A DNA stretch of 60,180 bases from a virus (lineage: Duplodnaviria > Caudoviricetes), in IMG/VR virus record IMGVR_UViG_3300047388_000264, positions 1-60,180 of that record; one strand, given 5' to 3'. Both the position numbers and the translations under genes were made by a program. The notes under the pieces were generated by a model that saw nothing but the letters and a program-made list of their open reading frames with translations, was not told where the DNA came from and did no database searches. Below, piece by piece: positions 16,372-30,334 of the stretch. Position 1 is the first letter of the stretch. The number at the start of each line of letters is the position of its first letter.

Positions 16372-16382
16372 TCAAGGCCCCC

Positions 16383-17660: not shown

Positions 17661-18527
17661 TTACCCGCGCCGACGCCGGTAGAAACCAACGCCAGCGCCC
17701 GGCATCTGTACGACCTGCTGCCGCATCGACCGATCCGGTACCGCGAAACCCATCGTGGGTACGATGTCCCCTACGCCCGACAGCGACAACTGCGAAGAGA
17801 TACTGGCTGGTGCCACTACGTCCAGCAGTCTCGAAAGGGTCAGCGCCGCGCCACCGGCCACGACGCCAGCCGCCACGCCACCCGGCAGGAACTTGTGAGC
17901 CAAGTAGCCCGCCATTGCCGCGCCCACGCCCGTTACGAGCGGCACGGTGAACGAACTGGACGGAATCATACCCGTCAGCGAAGCCGGGATGAGGGTAGGC
18001 AGATACTTGGTGGCTGCGACGCCAATCAGTACCCCACCCGCCATTTCGACCAGTTGCTTGTTGATCCCAGCCGGATTCCGGCGACGCCGGTAGTGATGGC
18101 GGTTCCGTGCGACCGAGTTGCGACGGCGACGCCTCCGGTTGTGGACAGTCACCACCGGATTTCTCCGGCGACGACGATGATGCACCCGCGCCACGGCATG
18201 GCGGCGACGAGTGTTACGAGAACGACGATGTTTTCTTGCCACGCTCTTTCTCCTTTTTTTGTGTGGGTTCAAAGCCCCGAACTCCAGGAGTACGGGGTTT
18301 CTTCGCTTGATCGTGCGACGGACTTTCCGACGCCGCGCGGACGGGTTCGCTTTGACTCCCCGCCTTCTCAATTCCTTTTTCAGCGTCTTCACGCTGTACC
18401 GGCGAATGACGGGCGCGCTTCGCTTGCGCCTCGCCGTGTTGTGCCGCCGCACCGCTTTTACGCGGCGTACCTTGCGGACCCTGCGTCGCGGATTCGCGAT
18501 CCGCGTGACCCTGCGAATGATTGCCAT
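17661..18527 (-). CDS. Arg-rich DNA-condensing core protein with hydrophobic C-terminal domain
   Basis: N-terminal half is poly-Arg/Lys with repeated NP; C-terminal half has three hydrophobic helices and LSGVGDIVPTMGFAVPDR. Confidence 0.75.
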   Translation of the reverse strand: MAIIRRVTRIANPRRRVRKVRRVKAVRRHNTARRKRSAPVIRRYSVKTLKKELRRRGVKANPSARRRKVRRTIKRRNPVLLEFGALNPHKKRRKSVARKHRRSRNTRRRHAVARVHHRRRRRNPVVTVHNRRRRRRNSVARNRHHYRRRRNPAGINKQLVEMAGGVLIGVAATKYLPTLIPASLTGMIPSSSFTVPLVTGVGAAMAGYLAHKFLPGGVAAGVVAGGAALTLSRLLDVVAPASISSQLSLSGVGDIVPTMGFAVPDRSMRQQVVQMPGAGVGFYRRRRG

Positions 18528-18553
18528 GTCTGCTCAATCTCTCCGCTTGGCCC

Positions 18554-18913
18554 TCACAGGAACAATCCGATGGGACGGCTGATCACCACGTTGAGCGTGA
18601 CGTTCGAGCCAACCACGGACGCCTTGACGATGGTGATCGTATTCGTGGCGATGGACCACGCGATAACCGGGTTCACCGTACCGAGTGAACTCACGTCAAT
18701 CCAGGTCGAGATGTTCGGGAGCAGGTTGATCTGCTGTGCCTGCGTCAAGGCCCAATTGTGGGTGATTGTGCAAGTGGTGTCCGCATCCGCCGCCGTCAAC
18801 TGCGCGATGATCTGATTGCACAAAAACGATTGCGCCGCCGTGGGTGCTGTAGTCGTGCTTCCGGACGGCACCCCATTGGTGTAATACCTGTAAGCAACTC
18901 CAATAACTGCCAT
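18554..18913 (-). CDS. Beta-rich structural protein (119 aa)
   Basis: AAAGGAG SD before MAVIGVAY; first gene after the leader hairpin. Confidence 0.55.
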   Translation of the reverse strand: MAVIGVAYRYYTNGVPSGSTTTAPTAAQSFLCNQIIAQLTAADADTTCTITHNWALTQAQQINLLPNISTWIDVSSLGTVNPVIAWSIATNTITIVKASVVGSNVTLNVVISRPIGLFL

Positions 18914-18979
18914 GTTGTTCCGTTCTCCTTTCGGTCTGTTACCCTTTCGGGGTGCTGTCAAAAACTCGTGAACCAAAGC

Positions 18980-19037
18980 AAAAAGGGCGTTGCGGTCGGA
19001 TTCTGATTTACACCAGAACCAAACAGCAACGCCCTTT
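18980..19037 (-). terminator. Long hairpin followed by a U-tract upstream of the core/capsid genes (attenuator-like)
   Basis: aaagggcgttgc (18982-18993) pairs with gcaacgcccttt (19026-19037); inner ttctg/cagaa stem; T5 run at the 3-prime base on the minus strand. Confidence 0.6.
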
Positions 19038-19131
19038 CTAGAAAGCTTTGCTTCGGCTTCAGGACTACGCTCGCCGCTTTCCGTCGATCACGGCAAACCC
19101 TGAAAATGATTGCGGACGATGAACCTTTTTA

Positions 19132-21234
19132 CTACTTCACGGCCACCGCCTCTTGCTTGTACTTATCGAGAACCTGTTGCGACGGCCCCGCTGGCATCAG
19201 TTTCAGATGCGGAACCTCCACGCGGCGATCCACGGCGAACTTACCGCCGCCGATCACGCCAGCGCGCGCAAAAAACGTAATATCTTCGCCGCTCTTGCCG
19301 AATCCGTAGCGGCTGTCGAGCATCGGCAGAAAGGCATCCGGCCCGCCTGCTTTCTTCAGCAGTTCGGCGCGCATGAGCACGACCGGGAAGCCGGAATAGC
19401 CGATGGACTTCAGATCATCGTCACCCTGCATCAGCTTCGCGTAATCGAAGGAGTGCGGGCGGCAGAACTTCACGTCGTGCGTTTGCCCCTTCTGAAGTTC
19501 GATGCCGCTAGGCGTTAGTTCCACATCTGACAACTGGCCGCATGAGATCGAAGCCCCGGCTTCGGTCAGTCCGATATCGTGCCGCATGATCCAGCACCAC
19601 CCCACCACGGCATCCAGTTCGGGATGCGCGTCAAGATCCGCCATCAGCATCTCGAACTGATCGAAGGTGAGCATGTTGTCGTCGTCCAGCCACAACACGA
19701 ACTCCGGTTGCGGTTCGGCTTCGATCACGGCCTTAGCGAAAACCATTCGGGTCATGGTCACATCGGAAGTGTAGCCGTTGATCGGGATGACATCGTACTT
19801 GTTCACCAGATTGGCGAACAACCAATCCCACGAGTTTTTCCACGGCCCCGAAAAGGTTTCGCCCGGCGTGCAGGTTGCGACGATGCGGCGCTTGCCGGTT
19901 GATGTGGTGCCCGATACGGTTGGCATCGCGGCAGGAGCCGTTGGTATCGCGCCCGCAAAGTTTAACTGTTGCCGCACCTTGAAAATCGCTAACCCTTTTT
20001 CGTACTCTTCGGGGCGGTTGTGATAGGCGTCTACGCCGTCCGCTTCCCGCTGTTTATTGATCCAGTGCTTGTGCGGGAACACCAAATGCCGCGCGTCGAT
20101 CACCACGCCGTCTCGCCGCGCCATTGCACAGAAATCGTTATCGGCAAACATGCCGGAGTATTCCGGGTAAAACACCCACCCGAAGCGCTCGTAGCGCTCG
20201 CGGGAAAGAATCGGCATTACAAGGATGCCGCGCTCGTGCTCGGTGGGCGTGTTGGTATTGACTTCGATCACGAAGTCGCCCGGAGTATTCGGACTTCGGC
20301 CACTGAGGTTATCGCGCTCGATCACGTCTCTCAGTCGGCCATCCCATCCCTCGCACGGCCACTGATCGTCCGCGTTCACAATCAGCACGTCGCCGGTTGA
20401 GGCTTCCGCCGCAAGGTTCACGCCGTCCACGTAGCACTTGCGGCCAGTATTCCAGATGACCTTATCTTGCGCGCGAAGGCCGAATGGCGTAGGTCTTACG
20501 ATATTACCGGGATAAAGAGCCTCGGTCTGGTTGCGGTTCGGGAATCCCCACCGCTCATCCACGCACAACACGTACTCCACTTGCTCGGGATGCACCGCCG
20601 CGCCGATCCACGCATCGTAAATCTCGCGCCACTTATCGGGACGGGCGGAGGTGTGCAAAATACTGAAGGCGAACTTGCCGCGCTCTTTCGTGGCTGGCGC
20701 GGCGCTACGGTGATTCAGCATCTCATCGGCAGTTCTTAGGGCCTCTGCCTCACTGACGGGTAGCGGTGCTTTCACTGCCGCCAGCACAATCGTCAACTTC
20801 GTTACCCCGTAGGAATCCGTCGTCAGGTTCGATGACCTCACGTTGAACGCGCCCTTGATCCCGTACGCCTCATGAAAGCGGTTGTAGTGCGGATCGCCAG
20901 CCGTGTGGTACAGGAAAGAATTGCGGTTCCAATACGAGCAGTGCGTGGGGTCTTGCCACGCGCCCGGCCCGTCCGTGGTGGGTACAACGATCTCGACCGT
21001 GCCGCCCGGCTTGAGGACGCGATGGATTTCATTGAGTGTCCAAATTTTGCTTTTTAGGTGCTCGATGATGTCGTGCGCCCGAATGTGGTCTACCGAGTTA
21101 TCGGCCCAAGGCCATCCGAGATCCAAATCAGCCGCTACGAAATTCGCGTCGGTTGCCCACGGCGGAAGCCACTTGTCAACGCCAATAAATCCTTCGATGA
21201 GTTGATCGCTACAACCGAGGTTGAGATTAAGCAT
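19132..21234 (-). CDS. SAM methyltransferase fused to two GT-A (GT2-like) glycosyltransferase domains (700 aa)
   Basis: LNLGCS...HDIIEHL...RVLKPGG...DPTH; then NADD and ADND motifs; then WLDDD and GEDITF motifs. Confidence 0.8.
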   Translation of the reverse strand: MLNLNLGCSDQLIEGFIGVDKWLPPWATDANFVAADLDLGWPWADNSVDHIRAHDIIEHLKSKIWTLNEIHRVLKPGGTVEIVVPTTDGPGAWQDPTHCSYWNRNSFLYHTAGDPHYNRFHEAYGIKGAFNVRSSNLTTDSYGVTKLTIVLAAVKAPLPVSEAEALRTADEMLNHRSAAPATKERGKFAFSILHTSARPDKWREIYDAWIGAAVHPEQVEYVLCVDERWGFPNRNQTEALYPGNIVRPTPFGLRAQDKVIWNTGRKCYVDGVNLAAEASTGDVLIVNADDQWPCEGWDGRLRDVIERDNLSGRSPNTPGDFVIEVNTNTPTEHERGILVMPILSRERYERFGWVFYPEYSGMFADNDFCAMARRDGVVIDARHLVFPHKHWINKQREADGVDAYHNRPEEYEKGLAIFKVRQQLNFAGAIPTAPAAMPTVSGTTSTGKRRIVATCTPGETFSGPWKNSWDWLFANLVNKYDVIPINGYTSDVTMTRMVFAKAVIEAEPQPEFVLWLDDDNMLTFDQFEMLMADLDAHPELDAVVGWCWIMRHDIGLTEAGASISCGQLSDVELTPSGIELQKGQTHDVKFCRPHSFDYAKLMQGDDDLKSIGYSGFPVVLMRAELLKKAGGPDAFLPMLDSRYGFGKSGEDITFFARAGVIGGGKFAVDRRVEVPHLKLMPAGPSQQVLDKYKQEAVAVK

Positions 21235-21799
21235 GGACAACCTCCGGTATGACGTGCGCACCGATAGGATCGAACTGCTTAACAAACGCAGCGATGGGCC
21301 AGTAAAACGCTCCATGCTCCAGATGCAAGCGAATTGTGCTCTCCGGCCACTGCCACCACGCGATCCGCAACAGCGCCTCCACCGTCTTTTCATCGAAGCG
21401 GTACTTAGTCACCCGCGCCGGATTCCCCACGGCGATTCCGTACGCTGGCACGTCGGTAAAAACCGTGGCGTTGGCCGCGATCACCGCGCCGTGGCCCACC
21501 TTGACGTGTCCGCAAATTGTGGCACCGTAGCCGATCCAAACGTCGTTCTGAATCTCAATGCCGCCGCCCTTTTCGTAGGAGCGGTCTTGCATGGGGTTCG
21601 CCGCTGTCTTCAGTAGCATCGTGTCGAACGGATAGGCCGATACCGCATCCGTGCGGTGATTTCCGCCCGCCAACAACTTGACTCCCTGCGAAATGGCGCA
21701 CCATTTTCCAATCGAAATCTTTTCGTCACCCCACCTGTGGACACACAGATCCGCGTAATAAGAATGCGCGCCGATTGTGCAATACTCCGGCAGACTCAT
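21227..21799 (-). CDS. CatB/Vat-like hexapeptide-repeat O-acetyltransferase
   Basis: IGKWCAI...GGNH...YPF...IQNDVWIG...IAVGNPARV.KYRF...IAWWQW. Confidence 0.9.
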   Translation of the reverse strand: MSLPEYCTIGAHSYYADLCVHRWGDEKISIGKWCAISQGVKLLAGGNHRTDAVSAYPFDTMLLKTAANPMQDRSYEKGGGIEIQNDVWIGYGATICGHVKVGHGAVIAANATVFTDVPAYGIAVGNPARVTKYRFDEKTVEALLRIAWWQWPESTIRLHLEHGAFYWPIAAFVKQFDPIGAHVIPEVVHA

Positions 21800-21828
21800 G
21801 CGGTCACCGCCTGATACACTGACGAAGA

Positions 21829-22023
21829 GTGGATTACCTCAAGGCATTGCGCGAAGCGCCGATTACACCGAAGACGGTTCCCGGCTACATCGTTCGTGAA
21901 CCCAACGACGGTTTCGACCAAGAGTTTTACGGCATGATCAAGGAAATGTTGCGCCGGGGATACGAGATAAGACTCGTGTTCAAGAACGGCGAGGAAGTTA
22001 CGCTTTTGCCGATTCCGCATTAG
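21829..22023 (+). CDS. Small hypothetical ORF antisense to the structural operon
   Basis: 64-aa ORF with plausible composition; the competing minus ORF 21796-22020 is equally possible. Confidence 0.3.
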   Translation: MDYLKALREAPITPKTVPGYIVREPNDGFDQEFYGMIKEMLRRGYEIRLVFKNGEEVTLLPIPH

Positions 22024-22895
22024 TCCGTTATCCCCTGACTCGTACCCATGAGCGGGCGCGGAATGCGATAAACCCCACCGTCCAGATACAGATGCTCGTT
22101 GCGAATGTCGTAGCGTAGCATGGGACGCAAACCGTTGCTCTCTTCCGAGAAGCGGTGAAAGTAATCGTACTCCTCCACCTTGCCGTCAAACTTCTTCTGA
22201 GCGTGATACGTCACGTGGGTGACGGTTCCGATCACTGCGCTTTCCTTGCCCTTCAGTTCGCCAAGTCCGAGCGCCCCAAGGTCCAGGGATTGATCACCCC
22301 CCTCGATGTACAAGTGTTTGCCATCTTCGGTTGAGCACAACAATACCGGCCCGTTAGGATTCATCTTGCGCGGATTCACCCAGGCGTCCGTAAAGCCCTT
22401 CACCAGATGCGTTACCGCTTTGCCCCTTCTATCCACCCACCCCTTGATCTTTCCGAAGCCGCTCTTACGTTTTTGCGGATTCTGCTCTTTCGTGAACGCG
22501 ATGATGACGTTCTCACCCTTCACGGTTTTGACTTTCAGTTCGATCAATTCGCCCAGTGCCGCAAGGTGGGAATGGACGTGCATTTCCTCGCTCACCACTT
22601 CCACGCGCTTGCTTGGCAGGCCGGTGAAGGATTCGCGCATGGCGACCGCGCCCGCTTCGGGGTTGCGCTTCTTGTTCCGCGCCCCACTCCGTTTAAACCT
22701 CTCCCGCTTCCCCGTAGCCGAATCCACGATCACGAACTCCGCATGCACGCCCTTGTTCTGCTGATCCGTGCCATAGCGATGCGCCGCCGTGTGCGACTCG
22801 AAGTGTTTGCGGCGCGCACCGATCACGACATCGTAGCCGCCCGAGCCAGAGCGCGGCGTGGGTGCGAGATTGCGCTTGCGCTTGGTTGCGGCCAC
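22020..22895 (-). CDS. Basic NP-motif virion protein with globular C-terminal domain (291 aa)
   Basis: GGAGG SD then GTG 22895 (MAATKRKRNL); KKRNP, EQNP, WVNP and MNPN motifs. Confidence 0.6.
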   Translation of the reverse strand: MAATKRKRNLAPTPRSGSGGYDVVIGARRKHFESHTAAHRYGTDQQNKGVHAEFVIVDSATGKRERFKRSGARNKKRNPEAGAVAMRESFTGLPSKRVEVVSEEMHVHSHLAALGELIELKVKTVKGENVIIAFTKEQNPQKRKSGFGKIKGWVDRRGKAVTHLVKGFTDAWVNPRKMNPNGPVLLCSTEDGKHLYIEGGDQSLDLGALGLGELKGKESAVIGTVTHVTYHAQKKFDGKVEEYDYFHRFSEESNGLRPMLRYDIRNEHLYLDGGVYRIPRPLMGTSQGITD

Positions 22896-22984
22896 TACGC
22901 GCACCTCCACACGATCACGCCGATGAGCGTAACCGCTACCGCCGTGACGGTCCAGAATGCGTGCATGAAGCCGCGTAGCGCCAT
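22895..22984 (-). CDS. 29-aa single-TM peptide
   Basis: MALRGFMHAFWTVTAVAVTLIGVIVWRCA; fills the gap exactly between neighbours. Confidence 0.45.
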   Translation of the reverse strand: MALRGFMHAFWTVTAVAVTLIGVIVWRCA

Positions 22985-22987
22985 AGT

Positions 22988-23266
22988 TTACTTGTCGTCG
23001 CTCCTTGCGGTCGTTTCTTCCGTCTTGCGTGTCGTCACGGTGCTTGGAGTCGGGGGCATCGGGATTGTCGGATCTTCGGTCGTCCCCTTCGGCTTCACTC
23101 GCATCAGGAGCGCACCGGCGAATCCCGAATCCAAATTGGCGATCACCTGGAAGGTCTGACCGTCGCTCGACATGAACTTTGCCACACCGATCAACGCGCA
23201 CGAGAACAGAACCACCAGACCTACCAGCAGTAGGACAATCGGCTCGATTTTGTTGTCCGAAGGCAT
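22988..23266 (-). CDS. Small membrane protein (92 aa)
   Basis: MPSDNKIEPIVLLLVGLVVLF...; TGATG overlap. Confidence 0.55.
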   Translation of the reverse strand: MPSDNKIEPIVLLLVGLVVLFSCALIGVAKFMSSDGQTFQVIANLDSGFAGALLMRVKPKGTTEDPTIPMPPTPSTVTTRKTEETTARSDDK

Positions 23267-23445: not shown

Positions 23446-23459
23446 AACAGTTCTCTCCC

Positions 23460-23618: not shown

Positions 23619-23620
23619 GC

Positions 23621-24103
23621 TTACCTCCGTCTCCGTCCACCGCTTCCACCGAGAAGCCCCGGCAGAATCATCGCTGCTGCAATCGCCAGCGGAATCGCGT
23701 AGGGGATACCCATGATCGGCGCGCTCAAGATCCCCATGTAGTTCCCACTGCTAAAATCCGTCTGGATGGCCGCGAAGTCCGCCGCGATGTCGCCCATCCC
23801 CATGCCGTTGAGCGACCCCTGTGCGCACGTACCGCAGCATCCCACGCCGGTTCCGAGCGGGCGCACGTTGCCGCTCACGTACGCCGCGACAGGGTTCATG
23901 TCTCGATTGGGAACACTGAAACCCTGCGTTGCCAGGATCTCACCGATGCCCATGCGGTAGTCCATCGTCGCTTGCATATCACGGTCAGGAACCGAGAAGC
24001 CCTGCGTCGTGAGAATGTCGCCCATGCCTGCGTGCCGCGCGGCGAAGAAGCCGGGAGGCAGCTTGTGAATCCCCGGAGCCGGATGCAAATTCAGTTGTGC
24101 CAT
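23621..24103 (-). CDS. Virion membrane protein with two GDI-x-T-QGFSVP(D/N)RDM repeats
   Basis: Start ATG 24103 (GAGAGGAG); two internal repeats; C-terminal TM plus GGRRRR. Confidence 0.65.
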   Translation of the reverse strand: MAQLNLHPAPGIHKLPPGFFAARHAGMGDILTTQGFSVPDRDMQATMDYRMGIGEILATQGFSVPNRDMNPVAAYVSGNVRPLGTGVGCCGTCAQGSLNGMGMGDIAADFAAIQTDFSSGNYMGILSAPIMGIPYAIPLAIAAAMILPGLLGGSGGRRRR

Positions 24104-24113
24104 AAATCTCCTC

Positions 24114-24422
24114 TCACTTCTTGAACGCAAACACCGCGAGCGCCACGAAACCAACCAACAGCAAACCGTTCAAGTTGATCCCGCTCCCGAAGGCATTCGC
24201 CCCGCCAGCCGCCGCCGCTCCTACGTCTGTCGCAATTCCGTGCGCTGCTGAACCCACCGCGCCGATCACGCGCGGATCGTAGGGATTCATGCACGCCAAA
24301 TATGGCAGGCAATCCGGCGAACCCCAGCCCGCGTAAATCGAATCCAGAAACGTGCATGGGTCCGCTCCGCAGTCCACGCCGCCCGCTCCGGTATCTCCGA
24401 GACTCAAGGTGCCGAGGTTCAC
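24114..24422 (-). CDS. Small Cys-containing tail-anchored membrane protein
   Basis: MNLGTLSLGD, CGADPCTFLD; C-terminal TM plus KK. Confidence 0.65.
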   Translation of the reverse strand: MNLGTLSLGDTGAGGVDCGADPCTFLDSIYAGWGSPDCLPYLACMNPYDPRVIGAVGSAAHGIATDVGAAAAGGANAFGSGINLNGLLLVGFVALAVFAFKK

Positions 24423-24856
24423 CGCCGCCCTCCAATCATCATGAGAGCGAAGACCACAACACCGAGAATCAAGTACGGAGTAGTGCCTACTTGTGTCGGG
24501 ACGACGTTACCGACATGCAAATCAGCTTGAACTTGCGCAACCGTGGTGGTCGGACCCGCGTAAGTATCCCCGGTCGGAAGCGTGTCGCCCGCCTTCACTA
24601 TCGCCGAAGGATTTGACCAATCCACCACCGAAGGAACCGTGGACGTTCCGCCACAAGAAACAATCGTATTGCCGTTAGCATCAATGCCGCCCGGAATGCA
24701 CGGGGGCTCCGCAGTCGGAGCACCGGCGTTGTACGCAGCCGCGCATTGTTGCCACGTTCCGCAATCACTGGACGGAGAGAAGAAATCGAGGAAGCCGCAC
24801 GGATTTGCGCCGCACGTCAAGTTCAGATCGCCGATCCCGACAGCGCCGAGCCTCAT
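24419..24856 (-). CDS. Small Cys-containing tail-anchored membrane protein, paralog of 24114-24422
   Basis: MRLGAVGIGD, CGANPCGFLD; C-terminal TM plus RR. Confidence 0.65.
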   Translation of the reverse strand: MRLGAVGIGDLNLTCGANPCGFLDFFSPSSDCGTWQQCAAAYNAGAPTAEPPCIPGGIDANGNTIVSCGGTSTVPSVVDWSNPSAIVKAGDTLPTGDTYAGPTTTVAQVQADLHVGNVVPTQVGTTPYLILGVVVFALMMIGGRR

Positions 24857-25065
24857 ATCGGCAACCATCCCTTCTTCCACGCGTACCACCCGGCCAAAGC
24901 GAGCAGCGCGATCCACACCAGCGACGATGAACCGCTGGCCGGTGCCGCAACCGTAGCAACCGGCACAACCGCGAGCGCGCCGGGGTTCGCGTGCATCGAC
25001 GTGGGCGTTAGTCCCATCGTCAACTGATCGCTGCCAACAATCGGCATGAGCGCGAGACTGTTCAT
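24853..25065 (-). CDS. Tail-anchored membrane peptide (70 aa)
   Basis: ATGA overlaps; LVWIALLALAGWYAWKKG. Confidence 0.6.
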   Translation of the reverse strand: MNSLALMPIVGSDQLTMGLTPTSMHANPGALAVVPVATVAAPASGSSSLVWIALLALAGWYAWKKGWLPI

Positions 25066-25271
25066 CCGCGCTTTTTCCTCTTGAGCATTCCGCCGATCAG
25101 GATGGCCGCACCCGAAAGCCAGAACCACGTGATGTCAGGACACACACCAGAAACCGCATTCGCAGCCGCTACGCCCGCGCCCGCCGTGAGAGGCACAGCC
25201 GTAGGGCATCCGATCTGTACCTGATCCGCCGCGTTACACGTGGGTTCTGCTGACCAGCCGAGACACATCAT
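25062..25271 (-). CDS. Tail-anchored membrane peptide (69 aa)
   Basis: MMCLGWS...WFWLSGAAILIGGMLKRKKRG; ATGA overlaps. Confidence 0.6.
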   Translation of the reverse strand: MMCLGWSAEPTCNAADQVQIGCPTAVPLTAGAGVAAANAVSGVCPDITWFWLSGAAILIGGMLKRKKRG

Positions 25272-25906
25272 TGGATGTACCTGTTCACCTTTCCGCGCTG
25301 CCCCGCGCTGTATCCGCCGCTGAAACCCCGATTGCCGAAGCTCATCGAAGCCGGAGCCGGAGCGACCGGAGCGACTACCGGCCCGTAGTTGGGAACCGGC
25401 ACGATGTCGCCCACGCCGGAAAGCCCGACGCTGAAGTTCAGGGGCGCAGCGGGAACCCCGCCCACCATGATCTGCTCCGACCATGCGCCCGCGTTTGCCG
25501 CTGACCAGCTTCCATTGAGGCTGAAGCGCCCGCTTGCGTCGGTCATCCCAAGTTGAGTAACCACGCCTCCGCCTACCGGCGTGCCGTTCTGTGCGGCCAC
25601 AATCGTAACGGGTGCGTTCGGTGGGCCGATGATCGAAAGATTCCACGTGTCCCCGGCCTTGAAGATCGAGCTTCCGCTATTGTCGTGGAGCAAAACTTGA
25701 ACCTGTCCGGTGTTGCCTCCGGCTGGCTGCGAGGTGCCAGCGGGGAGCATCGTACCTACCGGAAGTATCGGCGTAGGCGCAGCGCCCGCTGCCAGTGCAG
25801 TGCCACCGAACCACTGCGCCCACATGCCGCTGGACACGAGGTACTGATACAGCATGTAGCCACCTGCGCCCAACAGTGCGAACTTGATGAGATCGCCGGT
25901 TTTCAT
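25268..25906 (-). CDS. N-anchored virion protein with an Ig-like middle domain and LSGVGDIVP motif
   Basis: N-terminal TM; beta domain; motif shared with the core protein. Confidence 0.65.
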   Translation of the reverse strand: MKTGDLIKFALLGAGGYMLYQYLVSSGMWAQWFGGTALAAGAAPTPILPVGTMLPAGTSQPAGGNTGQVQVLLHDNSGSSIFKAGDTWNLSIIGPPNAPVTIVAAQNGTPVGGGVVTQLGMTDASGRFSLNGSWSAANAGAWSEQIMVGGVPAAPLNFSVGLSGVGDIVPVPNYGPVVAPVAPAPASMSFGNRGFSGGYSAGQRGKVNRYIQ

Positions 25907-26037
25907 CGCTGATCCTTTTCACGCTCGCTTTGCTCGATCATTTCGATGAACCTGTAACCGGCGAAGGTGATCGCTCCGACTACGAGGCCCAGGAACGGTA
26001 CGAAGAAAAGCCAGTCTCTCAATGTGACGTGTCCCAT
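25903..26037 (-). CDS. 44-aa single-TM peptide
   Basis: MGHVTLRDWLFFVPFLGLVVGAITFAGYRF; ATGA overlap at 25903-25906. Confidence 0.5.
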   Translation of the reverse strand: MGHVTLRDWLFFVPFLGLVVGAITFAGYRFIEMIEQSEREKDQR

Positions 26038-26043
26038 AAAAAC

Positions 26044-26337
26044 TCAATCCTTGAACGCAAACCACGCGAGCCCGCCCAAAACCAACAGCGCCCACACCGT
26101 ATTTTGGCTGACCCATTCCGCAATCGGACTGCACGGGTCGGGAGTAACTGGCGTGGGGTTCACGATGGAGGGGAGCCGCTGAACGAGATCGGTGGGCGTG
26201 ATTCCGGTAGTCGTGTCGCCCAAGCCAGCGAGCGCGGTCAAGGGCAGCGACGGCATCCGCATCATGGCGACGCCGGGCATTTGCTCCGGTAGCGGCATCC
26301 CGGTGTAGGAACGGCTTTCAATCGTGGTTCGATCCAT
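26044..26337 (-). CDS. Tail-anchored membrane protein with LAGLG motif
   Basis: GAGGAG SD; LAGLGD; C-terminal TM. Confidence 0.65.
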   Translation of the reverse strand: MDRTTIESRSYTGMPLPEQMPGVAMMRMPSLPLTALAGLGDTTTGITPTDLVQRLPSIVNPTPVTPDPCSPIAEWVSQNTVWALLVLGGLAWFAFKD

Positions 26338-26347
26338 TACGCTCCTC

Positions 26348-26953
26348 TCATTTCTTCAGCATCATCACAGCGAGCACTGCGCCCGCGATCAGCATCCAGT
26401 TTGGAATCCCCGCAACCGAAGACTCCGATAAAACCGCTGGCATCGTGAAGCCAGCGGGCGCGGCCCCGGCAACATTACTTATTTGTGTTCCGACATTCGG
26501 AGTGATCGTCTGCCCTCCTGCGATCTGCTGAACCGTGGGCGTCGCCGGAGCACCCGGCGCAACCATCCCACTCGAAGGCATGATCGTTGAAATAATGGGC
26601 GGATTCTGAAACGGCGTGTTCAGCGGCACTGGCGCTTGTGTGATCGGCGGTAGCCACGGCGGACGGTAGTTCGGATCTTGCGGGTCGATGAACCCTTGAC
26701 CCTTGGGCGGCAAGTACTGAGCATTCGCCGGATTGATGAGCGACAGATACACCGGATCGGTCGGATTGCCGCCCCATGCGAGAAAAGTTAACCACGGTGG
26801 CGGATTGGTTTCGAGGTAGTTCATGTACGCCGAGTAAGCATTCGATGCGCTTCCGGCGTCCTGTGGGCAATACGAGTACCACGCGACTTGCAACGGATCA
26901 AGCGTACCGCTACCTGCCGGTGGGCCGGTGCAGTAACCGAGGGACATCCTCAA
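26348..26953 (-). CDS. Pro-rich tail-anchored membrane protein
   Basis: MSLGYC start; GIPNWMLIAGAVLAVMMLKK anchor. Confidence 0.65.
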   Translation of the reverse strand: MRMSLGYCTGPPAGSGTLDPLQVAWYSYCPQDAGSASNAYSAYMNYLETNPPPWLTFLAWGGNPTDPVYLSLINPANAQYLPPKGQGFIDPQDPNYRPPWLPPITQAPVPLNTPFQNPPIISTIMPSSGMVAPGAPATPTVQQIAGGQTITPNVGTQISNVAGAAPAGFTMPAVLSESSVAGIPNWMLIAGAVLAVMMLKK

Positions 26954-27774
26954 TTGCCACCTCCCAAAACCAGCGCGGCGACGATGAGAGCGCCACCGAT
27001 CAGCAACGGCTTCATATTCGCGCTACCGATCACGCCGCCCGATGCGGCCTGCTGTTGCTGCTGGTACGCCGCCGCCGAAACAACTGAGATTGTTCCGTCT
27101 GGATTCATGACGGAAACCGTAGGCGGCGCGGAAGTGTCCAATTGCCCAGGTGGAGGCGGATCGGGCACCACGTTCGGATCATTTCGTATCGGATCTAAAT
27201 AACCGATCCACCAGTTCCAGCACGGCCCCGTTCCCCATCCATCCGGCCCGTTGTGAAAGTCGCACGAACCTTCTTGCCGGTTGTGGATGCAATTCACGCC
27301 CGCCGTTCCAAGCGTCGGATCGCTGCACGCTTTCACAAGCGCGTTCCAAGCCGTATTGAAATTGTTGATGGCCGCAAGTTGCAGCGAGCGGTAGTGAACC
27401 GGCGCATCCAAATAATGATGGAGGTTCTGTGCGAGATACGCCTCCACTGTGTTTGCGTCCTGCGTTGCCTGCACGCACGTTTGACCGCAACCGGAGAACA
27501 CGCCCGCGATGGCGATGCCTACAGCCGTCAACCCCGCGATGGCCGCGCCGATGGGACCGGCGAGCGCGAACTCCGGTAGGATCGCTCCCATGCCAGCGAG
27601 TCCCGCGAGAATGCCGCCCGTTGTGGCCGCGCCCTGCGCCGCGATTGCCGCGATGCTGGTCGGATCTGACATATCGCCGATGTCTCCGAGCGACGATGAA
27701 ATATAGGGAGCGTACCGCGAGAACCCCGGTATGGGCGTGAGCGGGTGCGCGTACTCTGGCATGGATACCCTCAA
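26950..27774 (-). CDS. Tail-anchored membrane protein with hydrophobic hairpin and Cys-rich domain (entry protein candidate)
   Basis: SLGDIGD, then a long Ala/Gly hydrophobic stretch, six Cys and a C-terminal TM. Confidence 0.6.
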   Translation of the reverse strand: MRVSMPEYAHPLTPIPGFSRYAPYISSSLGDIGDMSDPTSIAAIAAQGAATTGGILAGLAGMGAILPEFALAGPIGAAIAGLTAVGIAIAGVFSGCGQTCVQATQDANTVEAYLAQNLHHYLDAPVHYRSLQLAAINNFNTAWNALVKACSDPTLGTAGVNCIHNRQEGSCDFHNGPDGWGTGPCWNWWIGYLDPIRNDPNVVPDPPPPGQLDTSAPPTVSVMNPDGTISVVSAAAYQQQQQAASGGVIGSANMKPLLIGGALIVAALVLGGGN

Positions 27775-28184
27775 CGCTTCCGCCTCCGTGCCGTCTTGCG
27801 CTTTGCCTTGCGCTTTCGCGGGTTCACCTTCGCGCTTCCACCCAGTTGCGCGTGGCCCAAAACATCCTGCGAGACAAGCGCCTGTACTTTCCCGTCGCTA
27901 GTGATGCGAACCTTGGCGTTGATAAACTTGTTGCGCGGGATCGCGAGCGTCAGATTGCGTTTGCGTTTTCGGTTGCTCATGCGTTTCCTCACGATAGCCT
28001 TGTGTTCCGGCGACAACCGCTCGTAGTACTTGCCGTATGCCGCCTCTGGATCTTTGTCTTTGGAGCGAGATGATTTTTTTGGTGTCGCCCTTCCTGAACG
28101 GTCAATGTGATAGGTCCGGCTTGTCGAGAACAAGCCGCCGCGCCCGAACCCGAGAAAGTTTCGCTTGCGTTTGCGTTTCGCCAC
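27771..28184 (-). CDS. Lys/Arg-rich DNA-binding core protein
   Basis: KRKRKRNF, RKRKRNL, KVNPRKRK. Confidence 0.65.
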   Translation of the reverse strand: MAKRKRKRNFLGFGRGGLFSTSRTYHIDRSGRATPKKSSRSKDKDPEAAYGKYYERLSPEHKAIVRKRMSNRKRKRNLTLAIPRNKFINAKVRITSDGKVQALVSQDVLGHAQLGGSAKVNPRKRKAKRKTARRRKR

Positions 28185-28185
28185 A

Positions 28186-29010
28186 TCAGCGTCTCCCGCT
28201 CATCGTCATCAGCACTACTGCGCCCACCAGCAACAGAACCATTGGCGAACTCAGCGCGCCAGCGATACCGGAGCCGCTAACACTCAACTGATTCTGCGGA
28301 AAGCCGGCGGCTACCGTCGCCGTCTGCGGAGATCCGTAAATGTTTCCGCTCGCCGAAACCGAGCCACCCTGCGAAACCGCAAGCGTGCGCGTCAGTGCGT
28401 TCGAGGAGGACGCGATCAGGTTCGCCCAGTCCGCCGCGCTCATTGTTCCGGTTGTGCCGTCACTGAATACCACGGGGTAGGGAGATTCTGTAATACTACC
28501 GCCGCTGGTGTCCGTGGGCATCATGCAATCGGCAGGATTGTAATCGGGCGCGGAGGGATCGACACACGAACCGAGCCCGGTAAGCGTGCTGGACGGTCGA
28601 TTCATCCACGTGATGACCGGCCCGCCTGAAGTCTTGACTACCTTCGCCCAGATGTAGCCCCACGGAGTATGCTGCAAGTGCGCGTCACCCGGAGCGCCTA
28701 CCGGGCGCGGCGGCAACTGCGGAGCGATCAGCCCTTGCGAAATCAACCCTTGAATATAGGTGGGCATTCCGCCGCCTGTGTACGCCGGAAGTGGTGCGGC
28801 TGTCGGCGGCATAGGAATAGGATCAATCGGCATCAGCGTGGACGCTAGGTCAACTCCGAGGCCGCTCACACCGCCGCCCGTTACCGGCGCAAGGTTCTGG
28901 TGAAGCCGATGCCAGCCCCATGCGTTCCCGCGCGGAATGTGCTGCGGGGTGCGAAGCTCTGCGGGCAAGCTGTGATTGCCGGGGACATCGGAGGGAACTT
29001 GCATTCTCAT
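28186..29010 (-). CDS. Tail-anchored virion membrane protein with VSGLG and LTGLG motifs
   Basis: ATGA overlap at 29007-29010; C-terminal TM plus GRR. Confidence 0.6.
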   Translation of the reverse strand: MRMQVPSDVPGNHSLPAELRTPQHIPRGNAWGWHRLHQNLAPVTGGGVSGLGVDLASTLMPIDPIPMPPTAAPLPAYTGGGMPTYIQGLISQGLIAPQLPPRPVGAPGDAHLQHTPWGYIWAKVVKTSGGPVITWMNRPSSTLTGLGSCVDPSAPDYNPADCMMPTDTSGGSITESPYPVVFSDGTTGTMSAADWANLIASSSNALTRTLAVSQGGSVSASGNIYGSPQTATVAAGFPQNQLSVSGSGIAGALSSPMVLLLVGAVVLMTMSGRR

Positions 29011-29231
29011 GTGGCTGTGCTCGATCCTTTCAGGACACACGAACCGCCAGCGGCCAGGGTGGAATCAGGCACCCAATCGTAACCCTGCGGGCACTGATGC
29101 ACTACGCTCCCGGTGCTCGCTCCGAGCGGACCAACGGGCGGCGTACTCGCAGCGGCTTGCTGTTGATGCTGGTAGAAAAGGTAGCCCCCGGAGCCAAGTA
29201 CGCCGAGCATTACGAGATCGCCGGTGTCCAT
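29007..29231 (-). CDS. Small N-anchored membrane protein
   Basis: N-terminus resembles 25268-25906 (MxTGDL...LG.GGY..YQ); CPQGY...C. Confidence 0.6.
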   Translation of the reverse strand: MDTGDLVMLGVLGSGGYLFYQHQQQAAASTPPVGPLGASTGSVVHQCPQGYDWVPDSTLAAGGSCVLKGSSTAT

Positions 29232-29507
29232 TTAATTTCTGCGCCTCCGTGCCAATGCCTTCATGCCGTGCGGATGTTTTCCGGGTTCTTCGCAGACAAC
29301 CGCATGCCGAATATCGTAAGGATGAATCGACTCGTGGCCGTCCGTGATTTTTGTTGTCCCGTTCTTTACCCACGCCGGAGTGCAGTGACCACCGTAGGCT
29401 TTTACCCAAACCGTGTGATGACCGCGCGGTGCGCGACTTGAGCGCGGATGACGCGGTTTAGGATTCGGCATGCGAGTTATGCGATGGCGACGGCGCGCTT
29501 TCGTCAT
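29232..29507 (-). CDS. Basic Arg/His-rich protein (91 aa)
   Basis: MTKARRRHRITRMPNPKPR; ATGA overlap with the protease gene. Confidence 0.55.
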   Translation of the reverse strand: MTKARRRHRITRMPNPKPRHPRSSRAPRGHHTVWVKAYGGHCTPAWVKNGTTKITDGHESIHPYDIRHAVVCEEPGKHPHGMKALARRRRN

Positions 29508-30190
29508 ACCCGACCCTCGATCATCTTCCACCCGAACCAAACCGTTGCCGCGAGCGCCGCGAGCGAGATCAGCGAACACGAACCGTCCGTGCTCCACTCC
29601 TTCAGCTTGCCGAATTTATTTGGCACTTCCCACCCCGGATAATCGCCGTGGCTGGTATCCATCGGCACGCGCTCGCCGTTCGGGTACGCCACGGTGTAGA
29701 CGTGCGAGTACTGATCGGGCGCGATCTCCGACGCGGCAACCGTACAGAACTTGCACGGAATCCCCTGAGTCATGAGCAGCGCCGCGCAGTACATGGCGAA
29801 GTCGTCACAGTCGCCGGTCGCCACGCCCGATTCGATGTAGCGCGCCATGTCCACGGGACGGATGATGACCTCAACCAAATCGTCAGGGGAGCCACCCGCG
29901 AAACCGAGGCCGATACTTTCGTCGCGCTGGAAGTGGATCGAGTTCTTGACGTGATCGAAGGCGCGGGCAAGGATTCCTGAAGGTGACGACTTCGGAACGC
30001 CCGCGAAAACTTCCGCCGCGTACGCCTTGAACTCAGGAGTAGCCGCGTCCGCGCTGGCGCGCTCTCCCATGATTCGCAAGGTCCGCGCTACCTGATCGTC
30101 CGGCACGTTCCCCAGTTCCGTGACGCTAAAACGTCCAGACCCAAGTAGGGCATGTGTTGCGTTCCCGCTTGCTGCGGAGGCAAGGCGCAT
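29504..30190 (-). CDS. Transglutaminase-fold cysteine protease, candidate maturation protease, with C-terminal TM
   Basis: GDCDD (catalytic Cys), SHVY (His), PMDTS (Asp); first gene of the structural operon. Confidence 0.8.
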   Translation of the reverse strand: MRLASAASGNATHALLGSGRFSVTELGNVPDDQVARTLRIMGERASADAATPEFKAYAAEVFAGVPKSSPSGILARAFDHVKNSIHFQRDESIGLGFAGGSPDDLVEVIIRPVDMARYIESGVATGDCDDFAMYCAALLMTQGIPCKFCTVAASEIAPDQYSHVYTVAYPNGERVPMDTSHGDYPGWEVPNKFGKLKEWSTDGSCSLISLAALAATVWFGWKMIEGRV

Positions 30191-30334
30191 TGGCTTTGCG
30201 AGATTATGGCACAAAAAACGGCGCGCGCAAAGGAATTTTGTTTAGGTACGATTGCGCCGATCAGCAACAGCCTAGTCCCAAGGCTTGCAATTCAGCGGAT
30301 TACGGTTTATTATCGTTATTCCTGAAAGGGGTTC

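Follow-up and report, generated by a model that had tools for sequence, protein, structure and literature searches.

A conserved G-phi-G motif on small membrane proteins of a putatively tailless bacterial virus, and its possible processing by a transglutaminase-fold enzyme

Introduction

Along the minus strand of the window, the 60,180-nt stretch of viral DNA analysed here, a short glycine-containing motif recurs in the proteins of a virion operon, which raises the question of what reads this motif and to what end. The original prediction proposed an adenovirus-like LxGx/G maturation signal (the slash marks the proposed border here and below) that would be read by a membrane-anchored enzyme encoded at the head of the operon.

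Results

Virus type and genome context

The 60-kb window is best explained as a temperate virus genome that is close to complete. The virus would be tailless and membrane-containing, with single jelly-roll capsid-like proteins, and its likely hosts are soil Acidobacteriota (Bryobacteraceae, Solibacteraceae). The virus is previously undescribed, and no relative of it was found among GenBank phages. Four genes provide this context:

15541-16371, minus strand: capsid-like protein, 276 aa, two copies of the 16383-16796 module (E 4e-5 and 1e-3), without the motif
16383-16796, minus strand: capsid-like protein, 137 aa, without the motif
17005-17625, minus strand: capsid-like, jelly-roll-like protein, 206 aa, without the motif
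47154-48617, minus strand: HerA/FtsK-type ATPase, candidate genome-packaging ATPase (Pfam DUF87, E 8.4e-10)

The capsid-like genes (15541-17625) are kept in 5/5 complete relatives, and an AF2 model from this block (pLDDT 64) matched the SPV1 capsid chain, HCIV-1 and HHIV-2 with VIA Z scores of 8.3, 6.3 and 5.5, respectively. NCBIfam HerA models matched the ATPase at E 6e-10, far under the model cut-offs. Among 15 loci with the capsid-like protein, an enzyme match was present in the same contig for all but one incomplete 40.9-kb contig.

The enzyme heading the virion operon

29504-30190, minus strand: transglutaminase-fold Cys-His-Asp enzyme, 228 aa, start MRLAS (Pfam, triad, AF2, VIA)

As originally described, the minus-strand virion operon of the window begins with this gene, and the same is true of 5/5 complete relatives. 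The triad is likewise as described: Cys128 (nt 29807-29809), His163 (29702-29704) and Asp178 (29657-29659) are invariant in 32/32 aligned family members, and a C-terminal TM helix at about nt 29528-29575 provides the membrane anchor. Pfam Transglut_core matched the window protein at E 7.5e-4 and 20.2 bits, under the 23-bit cut-off, and 25/32 family members at E<=0.01. From the AF2 model (pLDDT 90.2) we confidently predict a transglutaminase-core fold, with VIA Z scores of 12.9 to 3kd4, 11.9 to factor XIII, 11.5 to TG2, 11.4 to TG3, 9.7 to LapG, 9.0 to PeiP and 8.4 to PeiW, and no bacterial lysin among the top fold matches. The enzyme thus has a transglutaminase/papain-like fold and is not of the adenain type; as had been anticipated, its family differs from that of the adenovirus protease. 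Since this fold is common to site-specific proteases (LapG), cross-linking transglutaminases and cell-wall endoisopeptidases (PeiW, PeiP), it does not by itself decide the function. An N-terminal MRLGSLG or similar tag is present in 21/61 family members; the window's own enzyme starts without a Gly motif.

Motif instances and the conserved core

All of the motif instances in the original list (16/16) are present, on the minus strand. The genes carrying the motif, assigned from sequence unless another basis is given, are as follows:

7534-8031, minus strand: lytic-transglycosylase-like tail-anchored protein, start MRLSLG/S (nt 8014-8031; PHROG)
17661-18527, minus strand: 288-aa protein with an Arg-rich N-terminal ~170 aa, a hydrophobic middle and a C-terminal motif
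23621-24103, minus strand: Cys/Gly-rich tail-anchored protein with three motif copies
24114-24422, minus strand: tail-anchored protein, start MNLGTLSLG/D (nt 24396-24422)
24419-24856, minus strand: Cys-rich tail-anchored protein, start MRLGAVGIG/D (nt 24830-24856)
25062-25271, minus strand: tail-anchored protein, 69 aa, start MMCLG/W (nt 25257-25271)
25268-25906, minus strand: protein with an N-terminal hydrophobic helix, LSGVG/DIVPVP (nt 25409-25423) 46 residues from the C-terminus
26044-26337, minus strand: small tail-anchored protein, LAGLG/D (nt 26218-26232)
26348-26947, minus strand: tail-anchored protein, start MSLG/Y (nt 26936-26947)
26950-27762, minus strand: conserved membrane protein, YISSSLG/DIGD (nt 27685-27699) ahead of a hydrophobic region (27 related sources)
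28186-29010, minus strand: tail-anchored membrane protein, VSGLG/V (nt 28855-28869) and LTGLG/SCVDPS (nt 28570-28584)

The 7534-8031 protein matched the PHROG tape-measure/endolysin lytic domain at E 1e-11 to 2.5e-8, and the chosen start of 24419-24856 is supported by its ATGA stop/start overlap with gene 24853-25065. Orthologues of 26950-27762 carry SGLG/A, SGLG/Q, RGLG/L, VGLG/Q, YGLG/Q or RGMG/D at the matching place, the MMC[LF]G[WF] N-terminus of 25062-25271 is kept in G1, G3 and G5, and relatives of 25268-25906 end with GLSGLG/F, GISGMG/Y, GLQGMG/N or GLSGLG followed by Q, R, C or I. Where a protein has an N-terminal helix, topology judged by eye suggests that its C-terminal motif may sit across the membrane from the catalytic domain of the enzyme.

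In the Arg-rich protein (17661-18527), LSGVG/DIVPTMGFAVPDRSM (nt 17769-17783) lies 35 residues from the C-terminus with D at P1', and an additional GAGVG/F is found at nt 17685-17699. Across this family, G-phi-G occurs 35-67 residues from the C-terminus in 19/25 distinct ORFs; the six without it in the C-terminal tail, where G4 has LAGIM and G5 S-L-G, include short ORFs of L016 (137 aa) and L018 (120 aa) and an L018 ORF reaching the locus end. The three copies in 23621-24103 are HAGMG/DILTTQGFSVPDRDM (nt 24020-24034), RMGIG/EILATQGFSVPNRDM (nt 23942-23959) and LNGMGMG/D (nt 23792-23812). The HAGMG/D and RMGIG/E sites are window variants of a longer peptide, HPAPGLG[DE]-phi-x-x-G-x-[FWY]-x-VP[QN]NP, whose conservation extends over ~20 residues before and after the Gly pair, and which gave 41 matches (one evidently false) in 25/52 sources as opposed to 0 on reversed strings. 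The window has VPDRDM, VPNRDM and VPDRSM in place of the VPQNP of relatives, which leaves the Gln unconserved.

Conservation centres on [R/S/G]-G-[L/M/I/V/F]-G with D, Q or A as the next residue. The original prediction was right that a real short signal exists, but what is conserved is G-phi-G or S-L-G, with D, Q or A next and frequently Arg at P4, rather than an adenovirus-like LxGx/G. Among 102 N-terminal G-phi-G sites, P4 was Arg in 22, P2 was L in 38 and M in 23, and P1' was D in 19, A in 14 and Q in 13, against background frequencies of 5% for R, 4% for D and 4% for Q. Sites lie mostly 4-40 residues from the N-terminus, and the shortest N-terminal tags (MSLG, MRLSLG, MTGLG, MRGLG) are 4-6 residues long.

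Enrichment by position and protein class

Whole-protein enrichment was evaluated in six genomes with 100 within-protein shuffles; our own gene calls gave 213 proteins of the structural module and 439 others. The [LIMV]xGxG pattern was observed 156 times in structural proteins vs 113.0 expected (z 4.5, ratio 1.38); other proteins were also above expectation (107 vs 86.1, z 2.3), making the plain LxGxG pattern a weak signal. [GS]-phi-G-[DE] was found 35 times vs 13.9 expected in structural proteins (z 4.7) and 19 times vs 19.3 in the others, and G-phi-G showed a mild excess in non-structural proteins (133 vs 99.8, z 3.4). Control patterns were not enriched (ratios of 0.68 for A-phi-G, 0.95 for phi-GG and 0.85 for phi-G-[KR]). 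Across all six-frame ORFs, the five-residue pattern was not more common than on reversed strings (171 vs 156).

Within the six complete genomes, the first 45 residues contained G-phi-G in 30/80 structural proteins with a C-terminal TM helix (shuffle mean 11.6, maximum 21 over 500 shuffles), in 16/133 other structural proteins and in 28/439 non-structural ones. An unbiased tripeptide count over residues 2-45 placed GMG (12 vs 1.15) and GLG (20 vs 4.5) at or near the top. Downstream of the enzyme gene in 31 related loci, 80/183 tail-anchored proteins had N-terminal (<=45 residues) G-phi-G, against a shuffle mean of 25.3 and a maximum of 39 in 300 shuffles; upstream of it, only 26/444 proteins did. 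All motif counts are based on our own gene calls and start choices in related, hence non-independent, genomes. The motif signal depends on position and on one protein class, not on plain LxGxG content; the enrichment in structural proteins sought by the original prediction exists in the former sense, whereas plain LxGxG is raised just 1.38-fold.

Conservation and the fusion junction

For 15/34 window virion-operon queries, including the small proteins 28186, 26348, 25062, 24853, 24419 and 24114, BLAST found no relative in any other genome or locus. Syntenic small proteins in G1-G5 and the distant loci L023-L029 do carry the motif, which outlasts BLAST-detectable similarity of the rest of these proteins. 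Enzyme identity across relatives that keep the motif is only about 30-46%.

Distant relatives encode the enzyme and the next membrane protein as a single fusion, with the motif at the junction. G-phi-G was found 20-40 residues past DxSHG in 17/25 long-extension enzyme representatives (shuffle mean 2.8, maximum 9 over 1000 shuffles), and 19/25 fused enzymes had it in the stretch linking the domain to the first TM helix, 6/25 being without a junction motif. Beyond the motif, the fused sequence is homologous to a downstream gene that stands alone in the window group (E 8e-7 to 1e-9); for instance, residues 143-274 of 28186-29010, after its second motif copy, matched residues 228-336 of the L025 enzyme ORF by blastp (E 8e-7).

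Discussion

We consider proteolytic maturation at G-phi-G by the enzyme at 29504-30190 the best reading of these data, one that we hold tentatively and in which we infer the cleavage, the bond and the enzyme responsible. Most small particle membrane proteins, the ones bearing the tag, would be made as precursors with an N-terminal leader of 4 to ~50 residues or, in some, a C-terminal tail, the border of leader or tail being the [R/S/G]-G-[L/M/I/V/F]-G core followed by D, Q or A. The tail-anchored enzyme would act as the maturation protease, cutting most likely after the second Gly, which would give a hydrophobic P2 and a P1 Gly, a pairing that suits papain-like enzymes. Such cutting would strip leaders, release the C-terminal tail of the Arg-rich core/membrane protein, free short peptides of the type D-phi-phi-x-G-x-F-x-VPQNP and, in the fusions of relatives, part the enzyme from the membrane protein. 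This reading is favoured by the position and protein class of the motif, its residue preferences, its conservation and its place at the fusion junction, by the triad and LapG-related fold of the enzyme, by the tag at the start of 21/61 family members and by co-occurrence. Against it weigh the weak plain LxGxG signal, the MRLAS start of the window's own enzyme, the fused enzymes and Arg-rich family ORFs in which the motif is missing, and the possible placement of some C-terminal motifs across the membrane from the catalytic domain.

A possible but less probable explanation is that G-phi-G and the longer GLGD-phi-phi-x-G-x-F-x-VPQNP form a docking or particle-loading signal that binds the capsid shell, a scaffold or an assembly factor and is left uncut by the enzyme of the operon, which would have another job, such as that of a virion-borne cell-wall endopeptidase at entry or exit. 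The ~20 conserved residues flanking the Gly pair exceed the needs of a protease site and resemble a binding peptide, and the frequent tag on the enzyme itself (21/61) is as expected for co-targeted cargo. The virion's tail-anchored lytic transglycosylase (7534-8031) bears the same tag, so that lytic enzymes belong to the tagged set. Shared by transglutaminases (Z 11-12) and by PeiP and PeiW, the fold fits a cross-linker or a lysin role equally well. PeiP and PeiW, however, are phage-encoded endoisopeptidases whose substrate is archaeal pseudomurein, and bacterial lysins are missing from the top fold matches. Tags of 4-6 residues would also make very small binding epitopes, the sequence ahead of the motif is unconserved and variable in length, and the junction position (17/25), which a cleavage site predicts, lacks an evident rationale if the tag only docks.

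It is improbable that processing takes place at the motif but is the work of a host protease or an unrecognised viral one. Co-occurrence and gene order are the sole ties of the enzyme to the motif, and many virion-operon genes are without a recognisable family in Pfam and PHROG scans. Nevertheless, no second protease-like family was found in the Pfam (63 window proteins) or PHROG (28) scans, the conserved C-terminal domain of 22020-23201 gave no match in searches, the enzyme gene is present in all recovered related contigs but the incomplete one, and in fused forms the motif adjoins the enzyme domain. A host protease would have to be conserved across the several phyla, mostly Acidobacteriota, spanned by MAGs with related loci.

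We give equally little credence to a true transglutaminase or sortase-like transpeptidase, either of which would harden the particle by joining its proteins covalently at the motif to one another, to capsid or to lipid. The top characterised fold matches are indeed factor XIII, TG2 and TG3, and relatives' VPQNP includes Q-x-P, a preferred tissue-transglutaminase context, but this Gln is replaced in the window. Near-C-terminal motifs (Arg-rich protein, 25268 family) would let a transpeptidase keep a large N-terminal part, yet at the mostly N-terminal sites only a tiny leader would be carried. Furthermore, characterised bacterial minimal-core transglutaminase-like proteins include proteases such as LapG, described as a cysteine protease of the transglutaminase-like type whose cut in LapA falls at a pair of small residues (PMC10990149).

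Finally, the motif is very improbable as a functionless by-product of Gly-rich, low-complexity membrane proteins, which the 10.7% Gly of structural proteins, the mild non-structural G-phi-G excess and the six-frame result would favour, given that no shuffle reached the observed values in the positional tests, that GMG and GLG stand at or near the top of the over-represented N-terminal tripeptides, that control patterns are unenriched and that the motif is kept at orthologous positions at 30-46% enzyme identity.

Under the preferred reading of proteolytic maturation, the window virus would resemble adenovirus in its short N-terminal leaders, its C-terminal tails and an Arg-rich core-like protein with a site, and differ from it in the fold of its protease and in a motif that is not (M/I/L)xGx-G. 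To our knowledge, no bacterial virus of this type has been seen to trim its particle proteins in the manner of adenovirus. Taken together, the tag and the protease-like enzyme heading the operon point to putative adenovirus-style particle-protein trimming in a bacterial virus.

Genome, host and relatives of the virus

The window spans an entire IMG/VR virus record of 60,180 bases, classed there as linear with a completeness of 57%. Its bases 1-89 are repeated near the end (about 60059-60180), where an 18-base tandem duplication (GTGATTTGCATGTACCTC) follows, and because the first 89 bases recur in this way, the window is probably a complete genome of ~60.06 kb, circular or terminally redundant, like 56-61 kb relatives with terminal repeats. 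Its genes include a tyrosine integrase, a DnaB helicase, a YqaJ exonuclease, DNA methylases, an IS1595 transposase and a HerA/FtsK-type ATPase, and a virion operon of ~23 kb runs on the minus strand from 30190 down to 7534. Most products of this operon have no match to any Pfam or PHROG family, and many are small proteins with a C-terminal hydrophobic helix followed by basic residues. A promoter scan of 29000-30700 gave a single plus-strand consensus match, no more than in shuffles.

Genes outside the virion operon:
58113-59588, plus strand: glycosyltransferase-sulfotransferase fusion
56184-56648, plus strand: dual-specificity phosphatase-like protein (E 4e-12)
47154-48617, minus strand: HerA/FtsK-type ATPase
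46161-47096, minus strand: IS1595-family transposase (DDE_Tnp_IS1595, E 4e-40), directly downstream of the ATPase gene
37827-38216, minus strand: DnaJ-domain protein (E 2.9e-17)
37271-37636, minus strand: second lytic-transglycosylase-like protein

Genes of the virion operon, all on the minus strand:
29504-30190: putative enzyme of 228 residues, heading the operon
29007-29231 and 25268-25906: proteins with a common N-terminus
28186-29010: protein related to a segment fused to the enzyme in some relatives
23621-24103: Cys/Gly-rich tail-anchored protein
22020-23201: protein with a conserved C-terminal domain
19132-21799 (region): methyltransferase/glycosyltransferase fusion (700 aa) and hexapeptide acyltransferase (190 aa)
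17661-18527: arginine-rich protein
17005-17625: capsid-like protein
16383-16796 and 15541-16371: proteins of 137 and 276 residues sharing a module
14149-14823 and 12032-12496: paralogues
7534-8031: lytic-transglycosylase-like protein of the virion

We recovered 32 viral loci related to the window; five of them (G1-G5) are genomes complete at 56-61 kb, bounded by direct terminal repeats and syntenic with it. In a more distant set (L023-L029), on contigs mostly of 38-45 kb, the enzyme is ~30% identical; the arginine-rich protein is shared as well, and some proteins of this set end like the capsid-like protein. The 19 loci on genome contigs, among them a 358-kb Bryobacteraceae contig, carry MAG names that are mostly Bryobacteraceae, Solibacteraceae, Terriglobia or Acidobacteria, with some bins otherwise named. 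Neither the enzyme nor the capsid-like protein matched any of 50,697 GenBank phage records, and the search turned up no relative that has the capsid gene but lacks the enzyme.

Capsid-like proteins and other products of the virion operon

The capsid-like protein is the best conserved of the operon. Its predicted structure is of moderate confidence (pLDDT 64) and comes nearest, among solved structures, to the single jelly-roll capsid proteins of viruses that contain a membrane. The model aligned with the SPV1 capsid chain at Z 8.3 (rmsd 3.4, 151 residues aligned), and further matches were obtained to HCIV-1 (Z 6.3), HHIV-2 (Z 5.5) and P23-77 VP16 (Z 4.9). In the protein Atlas the closest named clusters were the PM2 P2 and PRD1 P3 capsid proteins, a mere lead at just 0.75-0.77. 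The ATPase matched DUF87, the HerA central domain, at E 8.4e-10 (39.5 bits against a cut-off of 23.2), and an NCBIfam scan of 8 key proteins returned nothing beyond weak HerA matches. The 137-residue protein aligns twice inside the 276-residue protein (E 4e-5 and 1e-3), and all three copies of the module end in F-x-G-A-[RN]-R. This internal duplication, together with the splitting of the 276-residue gene in two in G5, suggests that the capsid may be built of several related single jelly-roll modules. In our reading, the operon supplies the virion parts of a tailless jelly-roll virus that contains a membrane, the membrane itself being inferred. The arginine-rich protein, which is conserved in relatives and adjoins the capsid-like gene, consists of ~170 very Arg-rich, protamine-like N-terminal residues followed by a hydrophobic region, and is a candidate membrane-tethered genome-condensing protein.

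Several other genes deserve mention in their own right. The two paralogues (E about 1e-20) both end in G-[WF]-[YF]-W-P-R, and the shorter one is fused in G2 and G4 to the C-terminus of a large protein of 520-600 aa. The sugar-transfer and modification enzymes of 19132-21799 and 58113-59588, in or near the operon, hint at particle proteins that are glycosylated or otherwise modified. The second lytic-transglycosylase-like protein, which has neither a membrane anchor nor the motif described below, is paralogous to that of the virion (39% identity, E 1e-10). The C-terminal domain of 22020-23201, of ~170 residues (...LYIEGGDQSLDL...GGVYRIP...GITD), is kept in 21 related sources including the distant set, and the N-terminal part is basic and variable; this domain (alignment A5) was considered as a second protease and set aside, with no PDB match and no Pfam match. 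Finally, 29007-29231 and 25268-25906 begin with M-x-TGDL-x4-LG-x-GGY-[LM]-x-YQ, an N-terminus also present in G1, G3, G4, G5 and distant loci, and the longer proteins of this type carry a GLSGLG-type motif near the C-terminus.

A tail-anchored enzyme with a transglutaminase fold

The operon had been predicted to be headed by a Cys-His-Asp enzyme with a transglutaminase fold, and this was borne out both by an invariant triad and by a confident structural model (pLDDT 90.2). The enzyme has 61 relatives among 90%-identity clusters, and a profile search of 50%-identity clusters retrieved 464 at E<=1e-30, 1,537 at E<=1e-10 and 4,722 at E<=1e-3. The segments GDC(128)DDF, SH(163)VY and D(178)xSHG, in the order Cys-His-Asp, are invariant in 32 of 32 sequences. 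The window enzyme scored 20.2 bits against Pfam PF01841, under the cut-off of 23 (E 7.5e-4), and 25 of the 32 aligned family members matched that model at E<=0.01, the best at 1.5e-6. The closest structure among the matches listed was the putative protease 3kd4 (Z 12.9, rmsd 3.5, 150 residues aligned), along with the transglutaminases factor XIII (Z 11.9) and TG2 (Z 11.5), the putative cysteine protease 3isr (Z 10.7; Foldseek E 3.5e-5), PNGase (10.3), LapG (9.7), PeiP (9.0) and PeiW (8.4). Among proteins with this fold are site-specific proteases, cross-linkers, amidases and phage lysins, so the fold alone does not decide which reaction the enzyme performs.

Searches for more specific assignments were mostly negative. 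The Peptidase_C93 model did not match the window enzyme and matched 1 of 32 family members (E 7.5e-4); no adenain or Ulp1 chain was among the fold matches listed, an absence that does not exclude the family; and the enzyme profile found nothing useful among solved-structure sequences, where the best match was centrin (E 0.33). Inspection of the N-terminus (MRLASAASGNATHALLGSGRF) showed neither a hydrophobic core nor a signal peptide, and the only hydrophobic helix of the window enzyme is C-terminal (residues about 206-221). An N-terminal MRLGSLG or similar is found in 21 of 61 family members, and the window enzyme begins MRLAS.

A glycine motif near the termini of virion proteins

All of the motif instances listed in the original prediction were found in the window, where the motif lies near a terminus in at least 12 genes, and the observation extends to the whole lineage. 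The adenovirus-like LxGxG pattern claimed for many virion proteins is enriched, if weakly: [LIMV]xGxG occurred over whole structural proteins 156 times against 113 expected (z 4.5), and over other proteins 107 times against 86 (z 2.3). The real signal is instead a positional G-phi-G (phi being hydrophobic), often preceded by R, S or G and followed by D, Q or A. The form [GS]-phi-G-[DE] occurred 35 times in structural proteins against 13.9 expected (z 4.7) and 19 times in other proteins against 19.3, and the control patterns A-phi-G, phi-GG and phi-G-[KR] showed no enrichment. Across six genomes, G-phi-G was found in the first 45 residues of 30/80 structural proteins with a C-terminal helix (500 shuffles, mean 11.6, maximum 21), compared to 16/133 other structural and 28/439 non-structural proteins, and across 31 loci in 80/183 tail-anchored proteins downstream of the enzyme gene (shuffle mean 25.3, maximum 39 of 300) and just 26/444 proteins upstream of it, although such motif counts overstate independence, coming from our own gene calls and related genomes. 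In an unbiased count of tripeptides over residues 2-45, GMG and GLG ranked highest or close to it for over-representation. Among 102 N-terminal sites, numbered around a proposed cut after the motif, Arg was found 22 times at P4, Leu 38 and Met 23 times at P2, and Asp 19, Ala 14 and Gln 13 times at P1'.

Other tests were uninformative or discarded. The pattern phi-[SAT]-G-phi-G over all six-frame ORFs gave an uninformative 171 against 156 on reversed strings; a regular expression for the N-terminal-helix family yielded 7 ORFs, 5 with a C-terminal G-phi-G, too few to use; and the spacing between motif and GCGQTC in the family of the gene at 26950 (47-69 residues), scorable in 8 of 14 ORFs, was not counted as evidence. 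A BLAST family seeded with 25268-25906 was dropped, as it collected sharers of an Ig-like middle domain and not orthologues. Lipobox, prepilin-peptidase and double-glycine bacteriocin leaders were rejected by eye because there is no conserved Cys or hydrophobic stretch directly after the motif and no match to a leader consensus.

The motif persists where sequence similarity fades. Of 34 virion-operon queries from the window, 15, including several small membrane proteins, had no BLAST-detectable relative in the other genomes or loci, and syntenic counterparts of such orphans keep the motif (a slash marking the proposed cut): MHIGMG/D, MAKLSMG/D, MMLSLGSLG/A, MTGLG/I, MQIGIG/Q and MRGLG/S. Counterparts in the distant set have basic leaders ending in R-G-phi-G, such as MIARARGFG/D, MSYVVRGIG/D and MAYVSRRRGMG/Q, and in the family of the gene at 26950 the motif precedes a hydrophobic region in the window, G1-G5, L023 and L027. 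Within the arginine-rich family, G-phi-G lies 35-67 residues from the C-terminus in 19/25 distinct ORFs, usually as [LS]-x-[GS]-phi-G/D. A longer peptide, HPAPGLG[DE]-phi-x-x-G-x-[FWY]-x-VP[QN]NP, occurs once in the tail of the arginine-rich protein and one or two times at the start of the Cys/Gly-rich membrane protein, with 41 matches (one evidently false) in 25/52 sources and 0 on reversed strings; the variants in the window (GMGDILTTQGFSVPDRDM, GIGEILATQGFSVPNRDM and GVGDIVPTMGFAVPDRSM) are diverged. So long a conserved peptide looks like a binding element, which counts against cleavage.

The motif at enzyme fusion junctions

In L024-L027 and L029 the enzyme ORF is extended to 335-408 residues and comprises the catalytic domain, R-G-phi-G, and a segment with a terminal transmembrane helix. 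This fused segment is homologous to a separate gene just downstream of the enzyme in the window group: residues 143-274 of 28186-29010 align with residues 228-336 of the L025 protein (E 8e-7), G1 44070-44549 matches L029 and L026 at about 1e-9, and the window-group alignments start at or near these proteins' own LTGLG or LAGLG. In 25 of the family representatives retrieved, 95 or more residues follow DxSHG; G-phi-G falls between the enzyme domain and the first transmembrane helix in 19 of these, and 20-40 residues after DxSHG in 17 (shuffle mean 2.8, maximum 9 in 1,000). The motif thus bounds two polypeptides that are encoded separately elsewhere, as predicted for a cleavage site.

A possible maturation mechanism and its alternatives

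Based on these sequence patterns, the enzyme may be a maturation protease cutting at G-phi-G, an assignment to which we give just short of an even chance. The original prediction of a maturation signal read by this enzyme thus stands in part, with the motif, fold, triad and fusion junction in its favor and the adenoviral pattern, weak in its plain form, against it. The enzyme appears to be tail-anchored, as do most of its proposed substrates; this would place their N-terminal parts on the same face of the putative viral membrane. In the wider scenario, which we regard as possible if somewhat doubtful, Acidobacteriota would host a large, uncultured lineage of temperate jelly-roll viruses that contain a membrane, have genomes of 40-60 kb and mature their particles by proteolysis: the tail-anchored enzyme would cut after G-phi-G, with a hydrophobic residue at P2 and Gly at P1, stripping leaders from at least 10 membrane proteins, clipping the tail of the arginine-rich genome-condensing protein, and freeing VPQNP-type peptides and, in fused forms, the enzyme itself from its substrate. 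The kind of system, i.e. virion maturation by a site-specific protease, is partly supported, its novelty lying in the virus lineage and the protease fold.

Several observations count against cutting: 6 of the 25 fusions have no junction motif, the arginine-rich proteins of G4 and G5 have variant motifs, and the N-terminus of the window enzyme has no tag. In N-terminal-helix proteins, moreover, the C-terminal motif may lie on the opposite face of the membrane. A complex prediction without controls, pairing residues 12-212 of the enzyme (alignment A1) with the first 80 residues of the Cys/Gly-rich family (A3), scored 0.01 against a mark of 0.32 and speaks neither for nor against. A lysin or a cross-linker, the latter already raised as an alternative in the original prediction, would suit the enzyme as well, the fold being compatible with these roles too. 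Virus-encoded enzymes with a similar transglutaminase-like fold, PeiW and PeiP, are pseudomurein endoisopeptidases that serve methanogen viruses as cell-wall lysins and have no tie to a repeated virion-protein motif; unlike them, the enzyme here comes first in an operon for the virion, and some relatives have it fused to a membrane protein of the particle.

Comparison with known maturation systems

Cleavage at G-phi-G would parallel adenovirus maturation and the capsid targeting sequences of T4, with a different protease fold. Adenovirus sites given in PMC4246237 include IVGL/G, QRGF/G and a Met-Arg-Gly-Gly substrate, and pVIc, freed at IVGL/G, is described there as functional in its own right. 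The adenovirus protease (AVP, adenain) is, as proposed here, a single virus-encoded cysteine protease; it cuts many particle precursors at a short Gly-containing consensus near the N- or C-terminus, where the motif lies here too, and its substrates include basic core proteins, as the motif-bearing arginine-rich protein would be here. The general AVP consensus is (M/I/L)xGx-G and its catalytic order His ... Glu/Asp ... Cys, whereas the conserved unit here is G-phi-G followed by D/Q/A, and Cys128, His163 and Asp178 lie on a transglutaminase core, AVP being of a different fold class with His before Cys. Unlike in adenovirus, the host is bacterial, the substrates are membrane-anchored and cutting is deduced from sequence.

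The T4 capsid targeting sequences are described as N-terminal propeptides of ~10 residues on unrelated internal proteins, which load these proteins into the particle, end at a protease site, and are removed by the prohead protease gp21 (PMC9026906). T4, however, has a tail, an HK97-fold capsid and an unrelated protease, and loading takes place onto a scaffolding core, not a membrane. The gp21 site is L/I-x-E, unlike the motif here. In RNA viruses, papain-like Cys-His leader proteases of the potyvirus HC-Pro type release themselves by cutting their own C-terminus after a hydrophobic-Gly pair, which resembles the fusions of enzyme, G-phi-G and membrane protein, although they act in polyproteins, belong to a different protease family and have no membrane anchor.

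By fold and Cys-His-Asp triad, the enzyme resembles LapG and DvhG (BTLCP, Peptidase C93), with 137 residues aligned to LapG. LapG is described as a site-specific protease with a transglutaminase-like fold that cuts LapA at the small-residue pair 108AA109 (PMC10990149). DvhG is predicted to be membrane-bound, as the window enzyme is C-terminally anchored, but both are cellular, periplasmic regulators of one adhesin, whereas the enzyme here is viral and, by inspection, without a signal peptide. Among jelly-roll viruses, SPV1, HCIV-1, HHIV-2 and P23-77 have the capsid proteins nearest to the model of the capsid-like protein, and they share with the window a HerA/FtsK-type ATPase and many small membrane proteins; their genomes are about 17-31 kb, compared to 56-61 kb and a probable acidobacterial host in the window lineage. 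Adenoviruses, giant viruses, virophages and tailed phages characteristically mature their particles by proteolysis. A literature search found no report of a maturation protease or transglutaminase-like enzyme in prokaryotic jelly-roll viruses. In the gene comparison of PMC4405056, a maturation protease is among the genes that polintoviruses share with Mavirus and not among the four shared with tectiviruses.

Significance for jelly-roll viruses

Whatever the mechanism, the window reveals a group of viruses not described before and without a relative among GenBank phages. If the proposed cleavage is real, prokaryotic jelly-roll viruses would have their first maturation protease and the transglutaminase-like protease fold its first viral use in maturation, with the adenovirus strategy reinvented independently and maturation cleavage having arisen at least twice among jelly-roll viruses, on unrelated protease folds. 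It would also provide a new and simple pair of site-specific protease and tag, give a transglutaminase-like family of 464 clusters (50% identity, E<=1e-30) a function, and offer a defined motif from which mature protein termini could be predicted across a widespread lineage of soil viruses.
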